The position numbers and the translations under genes are program-made. A stretch of 32,000 bases of DNA, taken from contig NC_007614.1 of the NCBI RefSeq assembly GCF_000196355.1, positions 2,580,001-2,612,000 of the forward strand, written 5' to 3'. The notes beneath the pieces were generated by a model. It worked only from the letters and a program-made list of their open reading frames with translations. It had not been told where the DNA came from and searched no databases. The stretch is from Nitrosospira multiformis ATCC 25196. GTDB lineage: Bacteria > Pseudomonadota > Gammaproteobacteria > Burkholderiales > Nitrosomonadaceae. Shown here one piece after another: positions 5,740 to 30,415 of this stretch (its first letter is position 1; each line of letters begins with the position of its first letter).

Positions 5740-6844
5740 ATGGAAGCAGAACACGTCAACGCTCTCACCCACCAGCTCGGCGATCTGGATAGCCGGGCAG
5801 CAGAACTGCGGAGGTATCTTTGACTTCGATACCCAGAAAACACGCCTGACCGAGCTTAACCGGCTGACGGAAGATCCCGCTGTCTGGGATGACAACAAGC
5901 GTGCCCAGGAATTGGGGCGCGAAAAAAAAATCCTGGAAAGCGTGGTCATCAACCTGGAAACAATTTCCCGCCAGCTACAGGATGCGCGGGAGCTGTTCGA
6001 GATGGCGGAAGAAGAGGATGACGATGCCACTCTTCAAAGCGTGGCGCGCGACATCAGTCATTTGGAAAAAGCAGTGTCGGACATGGAATTCCGACGCATG
6101 TTTTCCAATCCCATGGATACGAATAACTGCTTCGTGGATATCCAGTCGGGCTCGGGCGGCACTGAAGCGCAGGACTGGGCTGCCATGTTGGAGCGCATGT
6201 ACTTGCGTTATTGCGAGCGCCGCGGTTACCAGGTGGAAGTAATGGAAGAATCGCCGGGAGAAGTGGCGGGAATCAAGAGCGCGAGCCTCAAAATATCGGG
6301 GGAGTATGCCTATGGCTACCTTCGGACCGAAACCGGCGTTCACCGCCTTGTCCGCAAATCCCCATTCGATTCCGGCAATCGCCGTCACACCTCGTTTGCA
6401 AGCGTATTCGTCTATCCGGAGGTGGATGAAACCATCGAAATCGACATTAACCCGGCGGACCTGCGGGTTGATACCTTTCGTGCTTCCGGGGCGGGTGGAC
6501 AGCACATCAACAAGACTGACTCGGCAGTCCGGATTACACATAACCCTACCGGTATCGTCGTTCAATGCCAAAGCGGTCGTTCCCAGCATCGTAATCGCGC
6601 GGATGCGATGGCGATGCTGAAATCGCGCCTTTATGAAGCGGAACTGCGCAAACGCAATGAGGAAAAGCAGGCGATAGAAGATACGAAAACCGATATCGGC
6701 TGGGGACATCAGATCCGCTCCTATGTGTTGGACCAGGCGCGCATCAAGGACCTGCGAACGGGGGTGGAAAGCGGCAACACCCAGGCTATCCTCGACGGGG
6801 ATCTGGATGATTTTATCGAAGCAAGCTTGAAACAAGGCGTATAA
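5740..6844 (+). CDS. prfB: Peptide chain release factor 2, requiring a programmed +1 frameshift (join 5740..5820, 5822..6844)
   Basis: Frame 0: [27 protein letters not shown] then TGA (5821-5823). The +1 frame continues [39 protein letters not shown]... into track ORF 5912..6844, which carries SPF (KSPFDS) and [16 protein letters not shown]. Confidence 0.95.
5810..5824 (+). promoter_or_regulatory. RF2 autoregulatory +1 frameshift site
   Basis: GGAGG TAT CTT TGA C: an internal Shine-Dalgarno-like GGAGG (5810-5814), slippery CTT (5818-5820), and the weak stop context TGA-C. This is the canonical prfB recoding signal. Confidence 0.9.
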
Positions 6845-6859
6845 AAGGACCGATCGGAG

Positions 6860-8383
6860 ATGGATGAGGCTTTAGAGAAAGATTCGGAGGAAACGAATCG
6901 GTTTCAGGCAGAGATCAGGCTCGTCGAGGAGCGGCGAGCAAAACTGGATGCGCTGCGTGCAACGGGCAATGCCTTTCCCAATGACTTTCCCCGCGAACAT
7001 TTTTCGGCGGACCTTCATAACACGTATAGCGAACACTCCACCGAAACACTGGAGGCAGAACCGGTACCCGTGCGCGTGGCTGGCCGGATGGTCCTCAAGC
7101 GGGTCATGGGCAAGGCAAGCTTTGCCACCCTGCAGGATATGCGCGGTCGCATCCAGCTTTACATTGCAAAGGATGTAGCGGGCGACAGCGCTTATGGCGC
7201 ATTCAGGCATTATGATCTTGGGGACATATTGGGTGCGGAGGGTACACTGTTTCGGACCCGCACCGGGGAGTTGTCGGTACGGGTGACAAACCTGAGATTG
7301 CTCACGAAATCGCTGCGCCCACTGCCGGAAAAATTTCATGGTCTGAGCGACCAGGAGCAGAAGTACCGCCAGCGCTATCTCGACCTCATCACGAATGAAA
7401 GCAGTCGCAAGGTGTTTATCGCGCGCTCCAGGATCATCCAGGCCATCCGCGAATTTCTGGTCGGGCATGGCTATCTGGAAGTCGAAACGCCCATGATGCA
7501 TCCTATCCCGGGGGGGGCGGCTGCACGCCCTTTCATCACGCATCACAACGCGCTGGACATGCAGTTGTATCTGCGTATCGCACCCGAGCTTTATCTCAAG
7601 CGTCTGGTAATAGGCGGATTGGAAAAAGTATTCGAAATAAACCGCAGCTTCAGGAATGAGGGGATTTCCACTCGGCATAACCCCGAATTCACGATGCTGG
7701 AGTTTTACGAGGCCTACCGGGACTATGCGTATCTGATGGATCTTACCGAAGCTCTGTTGCGGGAAGTAACGCTAAAGGTGCTGGGCGCTGCCAGCTTCAC
7801 GTATCAGGAGCGCGAGCTGGATCTGGCCCAGCCCTTCGCGCGCCTGACCATCACCGAGGCTATCCGGAAATTTCATCCCGAATATACGGAGGCGCAGCTC
7901 GACGATCGTGCATTCCTGATCGACAAGTTGCAGGAACTCGGAATTCCTTATAAACCCGGGGACGGCGTAGGCGGATTACAGCTTACCCTGTTTGATGAAA
8001 CTACCGAGCATCTGCTGTTCGACCCTACCTTCATTGTCGATTATCCGGCGGAAGTCTCGCCGCTTGCGCGTCGCAACGACAGGAATCCGGCAATAACCGA
8101 CCGGTTTGAGCTCTATATAGCCGGGCGTGAGATTGCAAACGGATTCTCAGAGCTGAATGATCCGGAGGATCAGGCGGTGCGCTTCCTGGAGCAGGCAAGA
8201 GCCAAGGAAGCAGGCGATGCGGAAGCCATGCACTACGATGCCGATTATATCCGCGCCCTCGAATATGGCCTGCCTCCCACCGCCGGGGAAGGCATCGGCA
8301 TCGATCGGCTGGTCATGCTCCTGACCAATAGCCCGAGTATCCGCGATGTCATTCTGTTCCCCCAATTGCGGCGGGAGGATTGA
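6860..8383 (+). CDS. lysS: Lysine--tRNA ligase, class II
   Basis: 507 aa with class II motifs ([20 protein letters not shown]; [19 protein letters not shown]; [13 protein letters not shown]). Conserved prfB-lysS arrangement. Confidence 0.96.
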
Positions 8384-25072: not shown

Positions 25073-25738
25073 ATGAAAATTCTTTTTGTTACATTGCTCG
25101 CGCTGCCAATGCTCATGCTTGCCGGGTGTGGTCAGAAAACAGCGAAGGACGCGGAGAAACCGGGTGGGCAGCAGGCGCAACTGCCGGATGAGTTTACTTC
25201 CGAGAAGCAAATGCCATCAGTGCTGGAAGAAAGCCTCAGCCCGGAAGAGAAGTCTGCAATATTGAAAGAAATCATGCCGGCCGGGTCTGAGAGCGATTCC
25301 ACACCCGAGGAAAAATTCCTGCAGTTGAAAAAAGACGCGGAGGCTGGCGATCCCAAAGCCCAGACCGGCCTCGGCGTTATGTACTATACGGGTGAAGCGA
25401 TATCCAAGGATGCTTCGGGCAAAATCCTGAGTAATGACCCCGCTACCGCCGCCGCCTGGTTTCATCGCGCAGCTGAGCAGGGCTATGCGGATGCGCAATT
25501 CAACCTGGGGTTGCTGTATGCGAACGGCGAGGGGGTTCCTAAAGATTCCGTCAAGGCGTTCGGGCTGTTTCAAAAAGCGGCTGAACAGGGCAATGTTGAC
25601 GCGCAAAATAACGTGGGGGTGATGTATTATTCGGGTGAAGGCGTGCCTAGAGACGAAGCCAAGGCGAAAGAATGGTTCAAGAAAGCCGCGGCCCAGGGTA
25701 ATGCCGATGCCCAGGCAAACCTGGATGTAATGAAATAA
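25073..25738 (+). CDS. Sel1-repeat (TPR-like) lipoprotein
   Basis: Lipobox MLMLAGC. An acidic/Ser-rich linker is followed by at least three Sel1 repeats (AQTGLGVMYYTGE, AQFNLGLLYANGEGVPKD, AQNNVGVMYYSGEGVPRDEAKAKEWFKKAAAQG). Confidence 0.85.
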   Translation: MKILFVTLLALPMLMLAGCGQKTAKDAEKPGGQQAQLPDEFTSEKQMPSVLEESLSPEEKSAILKEIMPAGSESDSTPEEKFLQLKKDAEAGDPKAQTGLGVMYYTGEAISKDASGKILSNDPATAAAWFHRAAEQGYADAQFNLGLLYANGEGVPKDSVKAFGLFQKAAEQGNVDAQNNVGVMYYSGEGVPRDEAKAKEWFKKAAAQGNADAQANLDVMK

Positions 25739-25959: not shown

Positions 25960-27225
25960 TTGGTGACACCTTCAACAATTCAGATAATCAGCGCAGCGCT
26001 ATTCGTGGTTGCACTCCTGCATACGTTTTCCACCAGATTTTTTGAGCGATTGGCAAACGCACGTCCCGCCCACGCGGGGATATGGCATTTATTGGGTGAA
26101 GTAGAAGTCGTGTTCGGCTTCTGGGCCATGATTCTCATACTGTTCATGTTTGCGGTGGAAGGTCGTGACAGCGCAATCCATTACCTGGATTCGCGTAACT
26201 TTACGGAACCCATGTTCGTCTTTGCGATCATGGTCGTCGCTGGAACAAAGCCGATCCTCCAGCTTGCCATGCTCTCGGTACGCGCCGTGGCGCAATTCAT
26301 TCCGCTGTCACGCGCGATCGTTTTCTACTTTACGACGCTTTCCCTCGTTCCACTGCTCGGTTCCTTCATCACCGAACCGGCGGCCATGACGCTGGCTGCC
26401 CTGATTCTTCGGGACAATTACTTCTCGCGCGGAATTTCGCCCAAGCTTAAATATACTACGCTCGGGGTTCTGTTCGTCAATGTCTCCATCGGGGGCACCT
26501 TGACCTCCTTCGCTGCCCCTCCCGTGCTCATGGTGGCGGGGAAATGGGGATGGGACATCTGGTTCATGATATCCACGTTCGGTTGGAAAGCAGCTATCGT
26601 CGTGATAGTGAATGCGGCGAGCGCCACGTTGCTATTTCGCCGCGAATTGTCCCAAGGCGGGCTCGGGCAGAATTTATCTGATCGTGGAGAGAAAGCGCCA
26701 GGTCTTCTTGTAGCTGTGCACCTCATCTTCCTGATCGGAATAGTGACGTTTGCTCACCATCCTGCCGTCTTTATGGGACTTTTCCTGTTTTTTCTTGGCA
26801 TCGCCCATGCATATCAAAAATATCAGAACCGGTTTATCCTGCGGGAGGGTTTGCTGGTGGCATTTTTCCTGGCCGGTCTGGTAGTGCTGGGCGGACAGCA
26901 GCAGTGGTGGTTGCAGCCGCTGTTGCTGGGAATGAGCAGCGAGGCAGTATTCTATGGCGCTACGCTGCTGACCGCAATAACGGATAATGCGGCCCTTACC
27001 TATCTTGGCTCGCTTGTAGAGGGGCTCTCAGATTCCTTCAAATATGCGCTGGTTGCAGGCGCGGTTACAGGGGGGGGACTCACGATCATCGCGAATGCGC
27101 CCAATCCTGCGGGAGTCGCCATTCTGCGTGATAATTTCGAGGACGGGACCATTCACCCGTTAGGTCTGCTGACAGCCGCAATACCCCCGACTATCGTGGC
27201 TCTCTTGGCATTCCGCTTGCTCTAG
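25960..27225 (+). CDS. Polytopic inner-membrane transporter-like protein (resembles the putative Na+/H+ antiporter family formerly DUF1504; family recalled from memory, unverified)
   Basis: 421 aa, hydrophobic throughout (about 10 or more predicted helices). GGGAG at 25955-25959; the start is TTG 25960 or GTG 25963. The stop TAG (27223-27225) lies inside the CTAG insertion site of the mobile element. Confidence 0.8.
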   Translation: MVTPSTIQIISAALFVVALLHTFSTRFFERLANARPAHAGIWHLLGEVEVVFGFWAMILILFMFAVEGRDSAIHYLDSRNFTEPMFVFAIMVVAGTKPILQLAMLSVRAVAQFIPLSRAIVFYFTTLSLVPLLGSFITEPAAMTLAALILRDNYFSRGISPKLKYTTLGVLFVNVSIGGTLTSFAAPPVLMVAGKWGWDIWFMISTFGWKAAIVVIVNAASATLLFRRELSQGGLGQNLSDRGEKAPGLLVAVHLIFLIGIVTFAHHPAVFMGLFLFFLGIAHAYQKYQNRFILREGLLVAFFLAGLVVLGGQQQWWLQPLLLGMSSEAVFYGATLLTAITDNAALTYLGSLVEGLSDSFKYALVAGAVTGGGLTIIANAPNPAGVAILRDNFEDGTIHPLGLLTAAIPPTIVALLAFRLL

Positions 27226-27241
27226 GGTCTGTTGACGTTTT
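27226..27241. repeat. Left terminal inverted repeat
   Basis: GGTCTGTTGACGTTTT, 81 nt upstream of the transposase ATG. Confidence 0.85.
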
Positions 27242-27321
27242 GATCTAAGGTTTGTCATTAGGAAGAAAACTCGTATTGTTAAAGCTCTCATACAGTAACA
27301 ACACGAGTTTTCGATGCCCCG

Positions 27322-27621
27322 ATGCTCAGTGACGAGCATTGGTCGAAGCTGCATAAGATTCTGCTGCAGAAGACCATCTACGACAAGCCTGATCTGCGCA
27401 TGACCGTCGAGGCCATGCTCTACCGGATACGCACAGGCTGTCCCTGGCGAGATCTGCCGCAGGCGTTTGGCTGCTGGAACAGAATTTACAAGCGCTTCAA
27501 TGCCTGGTCTACCGCGGGCAAGTGGATCGAGATTTTCAAGGCGCTTGTGGTCGAACCTGACCTGGAGTGGGCTTTTATCGATGGCAGTTATGCCAAGGCA
27601 CACCAGCATAGCTCGGCCGCC
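27322..27621 (+). pseudogene. IS5-family transposase, N-terminal ~100 codons only (DUF4096-type N-domain)
   Basis: MLSDEHWSKLHKILL...MLYRIRTGCPWRDLPQAFGCWNRIYKRFNAWSTAGKWIEIFKAL...FIDGSYAKAHQHSSAA matches the conserved IS5/IS427-type N-terminus. Similarity ends at ~27620, and the track ORF tail (to 27789) is out-of-frame Rhs sequence. Confidence 0.8.
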
Positions 27622-27628
27622 TCACGGG

Positions 27629-28543
27629 ATGATGGATCCTTCCGGAACAACGGTCTGGAGCTACGATACCCAGGGCCGGATTATTGGAAAAACCCAGGTT
27701 GTGGATGGTGCCAGCCTGGTTACCAGTTACGTTTACGATGGCGATGGCCGGCTCGCCAGCCTCACCTACCCTTCGGGGGAAGTCATTAATTACAGCTGGT
27801 CCAATGGCCAGCTGACGGGCATTTTCCGGGGAACCTCCCTAATTGCTTCTGGAATCACCTGTCACCCGTTCGGGCCGGTCAAATCCTGGACGCTCGATAA
27901 CGGGCAGAACATCGTCCGCAACTTCGACCTCGATGGGCGCATCACAAGCTACAGCCTTGGATCGCTTGCCTACGATGCGGCCTCCCGCATCACCGGCATA
28001 TCCCGGGGCGGCATCAGTATCCTCGGCAACAGCAAGACTTACGGCTATGATGCCACGGATCGGCTGATTTCCTTTAGCGATGGAACCTCGGCCGAGACCT
28101 ATGCTTATGATGCGTCCGGCAATCGGACTGGCCAGACCATCAACGGCATGGCCTACACCTACTCCGTGAGTTATGCCAGCAACCGCCTGGATGCGATGGC
28201 CGGTCCGGGAAGTTCCCTGCACTACAGCTATGATGCCAACGGCAGCTTGGTCAATGACGGCCAGAGGAGCTTTGGCTACGATGCCAGTGGACGCCTGAGT
28301 GAGGCGGTCGGCCTCGCAAGCTACAGTTTCAACGGACTGGGCCAGCGGGTCAAGAAAAATGCCGGTACGGTTATCATGTTTGTCTTTGACGAGGGCGGAC
28401 AGTTGATCGGAGAATACGGCGCAGCAGGCAATCCCATCCAGGAAACCGTCTGGCTGGACGACGTTCCCCTGGCTGTCCTCAGGTACGGCACCACCTACTA
28501 CATCCATACCGATCACCTCAACACCCCCCCGGCAGATTCATGA
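27629..28543 (+). pseudogene. Rhs/YD-repeat protein fragment (5'-truncated, frameshifted at its 3' end)
   Basis: YD repeats: YVYDGDGRLASLTYPSG, YGYDATDRLISFSDG, YAYDASGNRTGQT, YSYDANGSLVNDG, FGYDASGRLSEA. It ends ...YYIHTDHLNTP and then leaves the frame at a C7 tract (28524-28530). No N-terminal Rhs region or start context. Confidence 0.85.
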
Positions 28544-28574
28544 TGCCATCGGGCAAGCAGTGTGGGTATAGGAC

Positions 28575-29138
28575 ATGGGACCTTTCGGCGCCAATCCGCC
28601 GAACCAGAACCCCTCAGGACTGGGAACGTTCAGCTACAATCTGAGATACCCCGGCCAGTATCATGATGCCGAAACTGGCCTGTACTACAACTACTTCCGG
28701 GATTACGATCCGAAGACGGGGCGCTATATCCAGAGTGATCCGATTGGGTTGGTGGGCGGGATTAATACCTACGCATATGTTGAAGGCAATCCGGTCAGCA
28801 AGGTTGACTCGACAGGTGAGTTTGCGATTGCGATACCCGCCACTCCAGCGGTTATCGAAGCAATTTCTTACGTTGGAAGTGCAGCGGCAGCGGCGTATGC
28901 TGCGCATAAAGTTACTCAACAATGTGATGATGATAATGATCGGTGCAATAAGGCAAAGAGCGATGCTCAAAGACGTTATCAAAAGTTGGTGAATAAACGC
29001 ATTCCTCAGTACTTATCGGGTGGAACCAAGGGCCCTGATGAAAATTACTACGATTCGATACTTCAGCTTCAAGATGGGCTGAAGGACGCAATACGACGTG
29101 TACGGCTTTACTGCAAACCTCTGCCGCCTGATCTCTAA
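28575..29138 (+). pseudogene. Rhs core end plus unrecognised C-terminal (toxin-position) domain; continuation of the disrupted Rhs gene
   Basis: PFGANPP...[62 protein letters not shown] is the conserved Rhs core terminus. It is followed by a 105-aa tail ([46 protein letters not shown]...[13 protein letters not shown]). Only AGGA 1 nt from the ATG, so independent translation is doubtful. Confidence 0.75.
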
Positions 29139-29595
29139 CTTCTCAAGGCACCAATATTTCGAGCCTTCACCCCCACTTTAATCCTGCGCCAAGTTATACC
29201 GGGCCTGTCATCCAGGATTTTTGCACGTGTGAAATGGATAACTGTTCTTCCAACTACTGCTCAAGCTATCTGAAACAACGCTGCAACAAATCTGATCAAT
29301 TTCATTAGATTGAGCTGAAACAGAGGTTTAAGAGACTTATCCACAACCTATCCCGGGTCTATCCCCGGTAACAGGGGAAAACGGCATGGTGTCATGGTCG
29401 GCTTCCCAGAAAACTCATCATTGGCGGAATTGACTGGCAGACTCCATGAATCCGGCAAGATTGCTTCGGCGGCGTGCGATGGACCTTGCGGCCTGCTGGA
29501 AGTGAAACTGAGCTGACGTCATCCCCAAAAACTGTAGCAGTTCTAAATTAGAGTAAAGTCGCCTTCTGGCTCCCTTATTGAAGGAGTATGAAGCG

Positions 29596-29741
29596 ATGAA
29601 GAAATCCCGATTCACCGAGGTTCAAGTAGCGTATGCGTTGCGGCAGGCAGAGGCGATCTGGGCGCAAGCGAGGTCAGGCGATTGCGCCAGCTTGAGGAAG
29701 AGAATGCAAGGTTGAAACGGGTGGTGGCTGATCTGACCCTG
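29596..29741 (+). pseudogene. IS3-family transposase orfA remnant with internal deletion/frameshift
   Basis: MKKSRFTEVQVAYALRQAE (the typical IS3 orfA N-terminus) is joined out of frame to ...GASEVRRLRQLEEENARLKRVVADLTL (the leucine-zipper end of orfA). The HTH middle part and all of orfB are missing. Confidence 0.7.
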
Positions 29742-29764
29742 CATGATCCGCTGGCTACCAATGT

Positions 29765-29780
29765 AAAACGTCAACAGACC
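29765..29780. repeat. Right terminal inverted repeat
   Basis: AAAACGTCAACAGACC, a perfect reverse complement of 27226-27241. Confidence 0.85.
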
Positions 29781-29805
29781 CTAGGGAACCGCTGAACAAA
29801 TCCCT

Positions 29806-29831
29806 TGCAAGCCCCGTCCCGTGGGGTTGCA
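29806..29831. terminator. Hairpin between convergent genes (probable bidirectional terminator)
   Basis: TGCAA(G)CCCC-GTCCCGT-GGGGTTGCA: a 9-bp stem with one bulge. On the minus strand it is followed by GGGATTTGTT, 36 nt after the lapA-like stop. Before the IS insertion it also lay ~25 nt after the transporter stop. Confidence 0.5.
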
Positions 29832-29866
29832 GCAAAATCGAGCCTGGCCGATTTCGAACCGTATCT

Positions 29867-30169
29867 TCAATAACCTTCCGGGACAGATGCTTCGTTCTGC
29901 TTCAAGGCGCGCAAGCCGTCATTTTCGACACGTAACGCTTCGACCTCCTTATGCAGTCTTCCTATCGCCATATGTTCGCGCAACATGGTCGGCAGCGTAA
30001 CGAGCGCTCCTATGAGCGCCCCCAGACCGAAGCAGACTGCGATCACAACGGCAAGCGATGCATCTGCACGCCAAAGCAAGAATATGACGCTTACCTCAAC
30101 AGCGTTCTGAACCGCAAACGTGACAATGAGGAAAACGATGACGAGTGCTGCAATCAATTGCAATTGCAT
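29867..30169 (-). CDS. LapA-domain (DUF1049) small inner-membrane protein
   Basis: MQLQLIAALVIVFLIVTFAVQNAVEVSVIFLLWRADASLAVVIAVCFGLGALIGALV followed by a coiled-coil tail. AAGGAG 5 nt upstream supports ATG 30169; the track start is 30244. Confidence 0.8.
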   Translation of the reverse strand: MQLQLIAALVIVFLIVTFAVQNAVEVSVIFLLWRADASLAVVIAVCFGLGALIGALVTLPTMLREHMAIGRLHKEVEALRVENDGLRALKQNEASVPEGY

Positions 30170-30415
30170 AACAACTCCTTTCCGGACACCCGTACCCGAA
30201 TCGGGGAAAACTCCTTCGCCCCCGCAAGAAGCACGATATATCAAATACGAACGTGGAAGACCTGGCGGGCGATACCTGCTGGTTCCGGTTGTAAAAGGTG
30301 ATGGAAAGAGAGCGTCCGAAGACTGGTCCGAACGCGATTCCGTACACTTGAATCAGCAAAAGGATGATTGAACAAAAGTGGCGCTATCCTCACGGCAAGC
30401 AGGCCACTTCACTCG

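Follow-up and report, generated by a model that had tools for sequence, protein, structure and literature searches.

What is left of an Rhs toxin gene when its C-terminal tip is of no recognised type and no immunity gene follows it? The question is raised by an open reading frame (ORF) of 187 amino acids (aa) at 28575..29138 on the + strand of a 32,000-nucleotide (nt) stretch of Nitrosospira multiformis ATCC 25196 (NC_007614.1, positions 2,580,001 to 2,612,000), which is referred to below as the window and is numbered from its first letter. A preliminary description, made from the sequence alone, had read this ORF as the end of an Rhs core with an unfamiliar tip, and had considered either an orphan or decayed cassette without its immunity gene or a tip with an unconventional function such as that of a membrane-inserting peptide. 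The analysis reported here makes it very probable that the ORF belongs to a dead Rhs remnant, whose tip represents a real family, whose partner gene is missing and which lies between the ends of an insertion sequence (IS). Based on sequence comparison, we conclude that 27626-29138 is what remains of the 3' part of an rhs polymorphic-toxin gene and no longer functions: a decayed cassette of an ordinary kind, carried by an unusual vehicle.

The ORF has the extent first described, and it does end an Rhs core, as its residues 3-81 match the Rhs-associated core domain TIGR03696 of NCBIfam (2.6e-25). The core end with the cleavage-site region DPIGL ... VDSTG, which marks the start of the toxin tip, lies at 28530..28817 (+), and the Rhs cores in PDB match the same stretch of the family profile. 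DPIGL is present, which together with the TIGR03696 match places the fragment among the Rhs cores; the second motif is VDSTG in place of DPxG. The remaining 106-residue tail from E82 (nt 28818-29135), for which no match was found in Pfam, NCBIfam, PADLOC or PDB, is made up of a hydrophobic Ala-rich linker (28818..28922, +; maximum 19-residue hydropathy of 1.49) and a truncated conserved tip domain that retains 71 of ~87 positions and ends with the stop codon (28923..29138, +; family alignments, including one of 101 members). In the homologue alignment the linker varies in sequence, but a Gly/Ala-rich linker is found in all carriers. The guanine-plus-cytosine (GC) content drops from 57.0% in the Rhs shell and core (27626-28817; window mean of 54.4%) to ~44% over the conserved tip domain (44.3% as measured on 28911-29138), so that the AT-richer tip noticed by eye is borne out.

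The 187-aa ORF is only the end of a longer Rhs reading frame, which begins at 27626 and is broken. Just upstream, a 358-codon ORF (27467..28543) contains RHS/YD repeats (Pfam RHS_repeat, 1.3e-20, six stretches; TIGR01643, 9.3e-16), and tblastn with full-length relatives followed the Rhs homology in frame 2 from 27626-27656, into frame 3 at ~28520 and to its end at ~29117. The YD-repeat shell fragment at 27626..28529 (+), which is delimited by Pfam, TIGR01643 and tblastn, corresponds to about residues 890-1390 of the full-length relatives. Because the homology starts only at about residue 890-1000 of relatives that are 1429-1646 aa long, the N-terminal two-thirds or so of the Rhs protein, any delivery domain included, is missing; a complete gene would have an N-terminal delivery region and ~1400 aa or more, and the window Rhs has neither. 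In place of the missing part, the fragment directly abuts a truncated transposase. The frame is broken at two further points. The switch from frame 2 to frame 3 at 28518-28528 (tblastn) falls on a C7 run (28524..28530, +) that causes a +1 frameshift and that is C6, and in frame, in a sister strain. An in-frame TAG at 28569..28571 (+), derived from TGG by a nonsense mutation, replaces the Trp of the ...VWRWD... motif of the relatives, as seen in the translation (RQIHDAIGQAVWV, stop, DMGPFG) and in the homologue sequences. ATG 28575, at which the ORF begins, is an internal Met of the Rhs frame and the next one after this TAG.

As judged by homology, the tip is a genuine member of an uncharacterised family of Rhs C-terminal domains. 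A word-seeded search with the tail recovered nine proteins of 49-72% identity, an exhaustive search recovered 85 representatives (E <= 1e-3), among them Rhs proteins 1429-2519 aa long, and a profile search for the tip recovered 43 clusters. Altogether, Rhs proteins of about 100 clusters end with an all-helical domain of ~85 aa, which reaches the very last residue in 93 of the 101 members. Beyond the Rhs cleavage region, the layout begins with a hydrophobic, Gly/Ala-rich linker of variable sequence and continues with ~87 conserved residues of the consensus C..x..C.KAK.DA...Y..L..KRIPQY.SGGT.G.D..HY..I.Q.Q..L.DAIRRV.LYC.PLP.EL..WER.AN...P..H, in which C9, A16, L23, H43, L54, P69 and W75 are invariant in a 48-sequence alignment. 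The tip is not named in two surveys of Ralstonia or Rhs proteins. Measured against this family, the window copy is damaged: it ends with ...PLPPDL, 15 residues short of its intact relatives, and lacks ..PxWERxANxxxPxxH with the invariant W75, while codon 29046-29048 is TAC and encodes Tyr in place of the invariant H43. The other five invariant positions (C9, A16, L23, L54 and P69) are retained. When the window was searched with a hidden Markov model (HMM) of the tip, the match at the 3' end covered only model positions 45-73 (of 87), and a tip-profile search of all six frames of 29050-29800 did not find the missing end downstream, with scores no better than those of control DNA.

Intact relatives also show what should follow the tip. 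In 10 of 12 related loci (L001-L003, L005-L010 and L013; tblastn E <= 8e-12), the tip is followed by a helical ORF of 176-189 aa, mutually homologous among these loci, whose first ATG lies between -4 and +22 nt from the stop of the tip. The loci come from metagenomes, Ralstonia nicotianae, Methyloversatilis universalis, Cupriavidus basilensis, C. pauculus, and Burkholderiaceae and Steroidobacteraceae metagenome-assembled genomes (MAGs). An eleventh locus, from Simplicispira (L012), gave only a weak match to this partner, and in Kangiella (L011) a 128-aa ORF with no detectable similarity to it follows the tip. On a Cupriavidus malaysiensis plasmid, the thirteenth locus (L015), a 161-aa hypothetical protein follows an 'RHS repeat protein'. 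A profile of the partner recovered 73 clusters, many of them from the Ralstonia solanacearum complex, which are all annotated as 'hypothetical' and have no Pfam domains. The partner is presumed to be the immunity protein. The suggestion that full-length carriers be sought and the ORF behind them be inspected thus proved fruitful, and the notion that the tail might be a degenerate extension without a conserved partner in its full-length homologues is contradicted, the partner being conserved.

In the window, the partner gene was not detected by tblastn or by its profile HMM in the six frames of 29050-29800, where no score exceeded -1.4 and control DNA reached 0.5. Since the homologues have a conserved partner, its absence here is a loss rather than a peculiarity of the family. 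The site at which the immunity gene would be expected, 29139..29393 (no strand assigned), is a low-GC stretch (45.9%) in which the ORF scan, tblastn and profile HMM found neither an ORF nor detectable homology. For these 255 bp, no protein-level, DNA-level (plasmid database) or Rfam match was found, and the longest ATG ORF on the + strand between 29139 and 29400 is 24 codons (29234..29308), in agreement with the preliminary description. One might still suppose that immunity is present in another guise: it could be provided by an RNA or by a tiny ORF, be encoded on the opposite strand or reside elsewhere in the genome. Small ORFs of 24-36 codons do exist on both strands of 29139-29460. These small ORFs match no family, however, and Rfam searches of 27000-30400 returned no match. 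Moreover, an unconventional replacement is needless in a family whose conserved partner of 176-189 aa directly follows the tip in 10 of 12 loci and, weakly, in an eleventh, and immunity to a dead toxin would serve no purpose; we regard missed immunity as extremely improbable.

Several other copies of the tip merit description in their own right. Damage is also seen elsewhere: in the Steroidobacteraceae MAG (L008, 5419-5670), only 17 stop-free codons precede the stop of the tip. In Methyloversatilis (L006, 983-6327), the ORF that contains the tip encodes 456 aa, has a start resembling a signal peptide and closely follows two ORFs of the same strand (1190 and 118 aa); in this locus, from M. universalis EHg5, the tip lies at 6001-6327 and its partner at 6334-6873. 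A metagenome contig (L002, 523-1041 and 3128-5170) carries an array of tip cassettes, in which an Ntox44 tip with small downstream ORFs is followed by a tip of the window's family with its partner and then by another YD-shell fragment; the array looks like a classical array of orphan modules. In R. nicotianae (L005, 1-287), a fragment of a DUF4096 (IS4/5-type) transposase at the contig end adjoins the pair of tip and partner at 365-1018 and 1041-1571, which could be a coincidence or a recurrent association of the cassette with IS5-family elements.

How the remnant came to lie where it does is answered by its borders. A perfect 20-nt inverted repeat, CTAGGGTCTGTTGACGTTTT, is present at 27222-27241 and 29765-29784, for which the chance expectation is none. 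From its first base, the left ~400 bp (27226..27625, +) is 76.6% identical over 391 bp to ISPa67 of the IS5 family, and it includes a 16-nt left terminal inverted repeat (27226-27241; inverted-repeat scan) and the N-terminal third of an IS4/5-type transposase, of which ~101 codons are left (27322-27624, +; DUF4096, Pfam 3.1e-22). At the other end, the last 29 bp of the ISPa67-like element (29752..29780, +), with the right terminal inverted repeat at 29765-29780, belong to a 33-nt match of 88% identity to the right end of ISPa67 (29752-29784). Both ends are bordered by a CTAG target-site duplication (no strand assigned). The left copy (27222..27225) provides the TAG stop codon of a Na+/H+ antiporter gene (25960..27225) and is identified by the end of that ORF and by an empty site in a relative, while the right copy (29781..29784) is identified by the inverted repeat, the match to ISPa67 and the same empty site. 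The whole island (27226-29784) consists of a 2,555-bp unit between IS ends plus one CTAG. The interior of the IS has lost about 430 bp, with the catalytic half of the transposase, and holds 2.1 kb of foreign scraps instead: the Rhs 3' end, the low-GC stretch of 255 bp that matches nothing, an ORF of 40 codons and parts of an orfA of the IS3 family. The element has the terminal inverted repeats and CTAG duplication of an IS5-family member, but neither a complete DDE transposase (~249 aa) nor the usual length of ~860 bp, and it is unable to move by itself.

The empty site is found in a more distant relative (L018, ~91% identity), in which the antiporter stop, ...GCTTGCT-CTAG, is followed by GGAACC..., exactly what follows the right CTAG in the window. 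Because of this empty site, the 2,555-bp block with one CTAG is a precise insertion of the IS type, and, as both flanks are intact, the Rhs DNA cannot derive from a local rhs locus. The CTAG duplication regenerates the antiporter stop codon, so the antiporter ORF is untouched. In a second strain (GCA_900107715.1, L016), the block is found at the identical place with 99.5% identity. We propose that the Rhs remnant travels as a passenger in a gutted ISPa67-like element inserted at the CTAG that overlaps the antiporter stop. In the simplest reading, an already-loaded unit, from left inverted repeat (IRL) to right inverted repeat (IRR), would have been mobilised in one piece by transposase provided in trans, and the rearrangements that built the loaded unit may have removed the end of the tip together with the immunity gene.

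The two strains also differ in ways that bear on whether the remnant is still in use. Their flanking housekeeping genes differ by 26 synonymous and 3 non-synonymous substitutions and the Rhs remnant by 1 and 5, respectively (Fisher p = 0.0009), and all four substitutions within the 187-aa ORF are non-synonymous, which suggests that the remnant evolves without purifying selection. The frameshift is strain-specific (C7 in the window, C6 in L016), the TAG nonsense codon is common to both strains, and a 1-nt indel between them falls exactly at the junction of transposase and Rhs (27625). Within the island, 29139-29784 has the highest density of substitutions and indels between the strains (9.3 per kb), with 4 of its 6 differences inside 29139-29393.

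These data also bear on the idea that the 187-aa ORF is a working stand-alone protein, with its hydrophobic stretch inserted into the membrane and its helical part put to an unconventional use (such as that of a decoy, a domesticated regulator or a membrane-active peptide), so that no immunity gene is needed. The ORF is indeed open in both strains, which are 98% identical over it, and its hydrophobic Ala-rich segment is real. The maximum hydropathy of that segment is nevertheless under the usual transmembrane level, and it corresponds to the linker that varies in all full-length carriers, while the conserved part of the domain is hydrophilic. The invariant His and Trp are lost, the start codon is an internal Rhs Met right after a nonsense codon, promoter-like sites in a promoter/terminator scan were at chance level, and all four substitutions alter the protein, against 26 synonymous and 3 non-synonymous ones in the neighbours. 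We therefore consider a stand-alone function very unlikely, and the membrane-inserting peptide of the preliminary description is not upheld.

Some of what was found weighs against a dead remnant carried in by a loaded IS, and we set it out together here. An ORF of 187 codons has stayed open in both strains, and a truncated product might be expressed from it. The substitution test for the Rhs remnant is based on six changes. The 255 bp at 29139-29393, with a GC content as low as that of the tip, could be cassette DNA that has decayed beyond recognition. An exact-match scan of metagenome contigs for the junction of transposase and Rhs gave 0 matches, and thus no second copy of the loaded unit. 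Finally, the interior of an ordinary IS copy may have been replaced in place, as an alternative to the proposed transposition of a unit that was already loaded.

A further explanation is that the locus is a silent reserve cassette, i.e., a classical orphan Rhs-CT module, from which the tip could be swapped by homologous recombination into a main rhs gene elsewhere. The ~1.2 kb of Rhs core-coding DNA upstream of the tip is a possible substrate for such recombination, and orphan modules of the window's tip family do occur downstream of main rhs genes, for instance in Kangiella (L011). Orphan modules carry an immunity gene, however, and the window copy does not; its tip is truncated and mutated at invariant positions, so that the toxin resulting from a swap would be dead; it is found between IS ends among housekeeping genes and not downstream of an rhs gene; and its substitutions look neutral. 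A reserve cassette is thus very unlikely. Of the orphan or decayed cassette first suggested, the decay is confirmed by truncation at both ends, the frameshift, the nonsense codon and the vanished partner, while the classical orphan module is not, with no main rhs gene nearby and the remnant inside an IS5-family element. We therefore retain the reading of a dead remnant between IS ends.

The rest of the island consists of further scraps and of IS sequence, and its surroundings are those of a housekeeping region. The 40-codon ORF at 29394..29516 (+), which was called as a gene in L016, bears a faint resemblance to DJ-1/PfpI (Pfam E = 0.24) and is probably a gene scrap; identity with DJ-1/PfpI was rejected, as no match was left once the frame was extended. 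The IS3-family orfA scraps (MKKSRFTEVQVAYALRQAEA ... RRLRQLEEENARLKRVVADLTL) at 29578..29751 (+) are frameshifted and have lost an internal segment; over 29670-29741 their DNA shares up to 88% identity with annotated transposase genes of the IS3 family, and a spliced reading matches HTH_Tnp_1 (E = 0.0012). Just upstream of the transposase start, a hairpin with 17-nt arms (27265-27312) resembles one in ISPa67 itself (L014, about 1250-1300) and possibly has a regulatory role in ISs of this group. On the same Raoultella plasmid (L014, about 2062-2160), a long (CTAGAAG)n tandem repeat directly follows the ISPa67 copy, starting from its CTAG target site. The neighbours in the 32-kb window include lysS, a copper ATPase gene, thiC, uppP, glnA, the Na+/H+ antiporter gene and pbpG, and no other rhs gene and no type VI secretion system (T6SS) genes were found in it. 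A Sel1-repeat protein with a lipoprotein-like N-terminus is encoded 1.5 kb upstream of the island (25073-25738). A Ralstonia atlas (PMC11481896) counts Sel1 repeats among the immunity proteins of the T6SS. As the gene is also present in the strain with the empty site, its product is probably unrelated to the island.

What, then, would the intact relatives do? The AlphaFold model of an intact tip (P0003, 37-sequence alignment) has an overall predicted local distance difference test (pLDDT) score of 82.8, with more than 90 in the domain, and consists of a long helical hairpin and a short third helix; that of the partner is an all-helical bundle (pLDDT of 92.2). In Foldseek searches against PDB, only generic helical bundles were returned, with best E values of 0.9 for the tip and 0.5 for the partner, and viral structures gave 0.5 at best. 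The profile of the whole protein matched only the Rhs core in PDB, and that of the partner gave a best E of 1. A bleomycin hydrolase, the best hit of the tip-only profile against PDB (E of 0.2), was taken as chance. Intact tips and partner proteins have no match in Pfam, NCBIfam or PADLOC, and the profile and structure searches together thus assigned the tip to no family or solved structure, as the preliminary description had anticipated. Going by the positions of residues in the modelled secondary structure, the two best-conserved Cys would lie at the closed end of the hairpin, with conserved Arg, Asp, His and Gln near the loop. An HEPN-like Rx4-6H motif in ..RRVKLHC.. was rejected, as the His is Tyr in most members.

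The conserved tip domain is hydrophilic (mean Kyte-Doolittle value of -1.17). The partner has a hydrophilic N-terminus and no signal peptide, and its hydrophobic last helix (1.7-2.0) is packed into the confidently modelled helical bundle. Because the partner has no signal peptide, a cytoplasmic target of the toxin is suggested, and the partner would probably neutralise the toxin by direct binding in the cytoplasm of the producer. Our best guess, which we hold weakly, is that the toxin is a small enzyme or tight binder acting on nucleic acid or on the translation machinery rather than a pore former. In the intact relatives, the Rhs shell would enclose the tip, and self-cleavage at the DPxGL region would free it. 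A Pfam scan of the carriers found RHS repeats and DUF6531, Ig-like, cadherin and laminin-G domains, and did not find PAAR or VgrG domains, while Sec-type signal peptides were recognised by eye at the start of many carriers. With such signal peptides and without PAAR or VgrG, classical delivery of the PAAR-Rhs type VI kind is improbable. A survey has tied lineage-specific Rhs families of Ralstonia and Xanthomonas to type II secretion (bioRxiv 10.1101/2025.05.08.652813), with which the domain content and the signal peptides of the carriers agree.

Taken further, the ~85-aa three-helix tip and the ~180-aa helical partner might be the toxin and immunity protein of a pair that resembles no characterised one in fold or mechanism and is used by PAAR-independent, Sec-signal-bearing Rhs proteins of Beta- and Gammaproteobacteria, and IS5-type elements might be able to pick up and move Rhs tip DNA as cargo; we offer this as a tentative and rather doubtful proposal. 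If it is true, carriage by IS5-type elements would be one route by which Rhs tip cassettes spread or are scattered. For the N. multiformis genome itself the locus is of little importance, and it is better annotated as an Rhs pseudogene fragment in a defective ISPa67-like element than as an 'RHS repeat-associated core domain-containing protein'. The by-product of the analysis is an unannotated tip family (~100 clusters) and a partner family (73 clusters) without fold matches, which provide a concrete candidate toxin-immunity pair in strains of the R. solanacearum complex, Cupriavidus, Methyloversatilis and others. The novelty is modest, as the two unannotated families belong to a kind of system that is already well known, and the precise empty site offers a clean case of Rhs DNA within a single pair of IS ends.

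The known systems closest to the remnant are the Rhs/YD-repeat polymorphic toxins of E. coli, Salmonella and Dickeya, including their orphan Rhs-CT/immunity modules, with which it shares the YD-repeat shell, the core ending with DPxGL and the variable low-GC tip; the relatives of the window tip also share the small cognate gene immediately downstream. Unlike these toxins, the window copy has no immunity gene, delivery domain or nearby main rhs gene and is broken in four ways, and its tip family matches no named toxin domain and has full-length carriers with signal peptides and without a PAAR or VgrG marker. N-terminally truncated Rhs pseudogenes are common; in a survey of plant pathogens (bioRxiv 10.1101/2025.05.08.652813), 132 of 294 Rhs sequences from Ralstonia were classed as pseudogenes and 69.6% of the Rhs tips as uncharacterised.

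Among individual tips, the one that invites comparison is Tse5-CT of Pseudomonas aeruginosa. Pore-forming Rhs tips such as Tse5-CT have a Gly/Ala-rich hydrophobic segment after the Rhs cleavage site, and so does the window tip. The window's family differs by a hydrophilic conserved domain with conserved Cys, His, Asp, Arg and Gln, and by a partner with no N-terminal signal or membrane anchor; the searches gave no sequence or fold match, although the Tse5 sequence itself was not compared.

The vehicle, in turn, resembles ISPa67, an ordinary copy of which is ~857 bp long, has 16-nt terminal inverted repeats and is flanked by CTAG. The window element is similar to it over 391 bp at the left end (76.6%) and 33 bp at the right end (88%), and has inverted repeats of the same type, CTAG on both sides and an empty site in a relative, but differs in that ~430 bp of its interior has been exchanged for 2.1 kb of foreign scraps. 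Auxiliary T6SS clusters flanked by IS1021 have been described in Ralstonia (PMC11481896). Like cargo-carrying IS derivatives and composite transposons, the window element holds toxin-related DNA between IS ends with a target duplication; in contrast to composite transposons, its cargo is dead and is enclosed by the inverted-repeat pair of one IS rather than by two complete IS copies.

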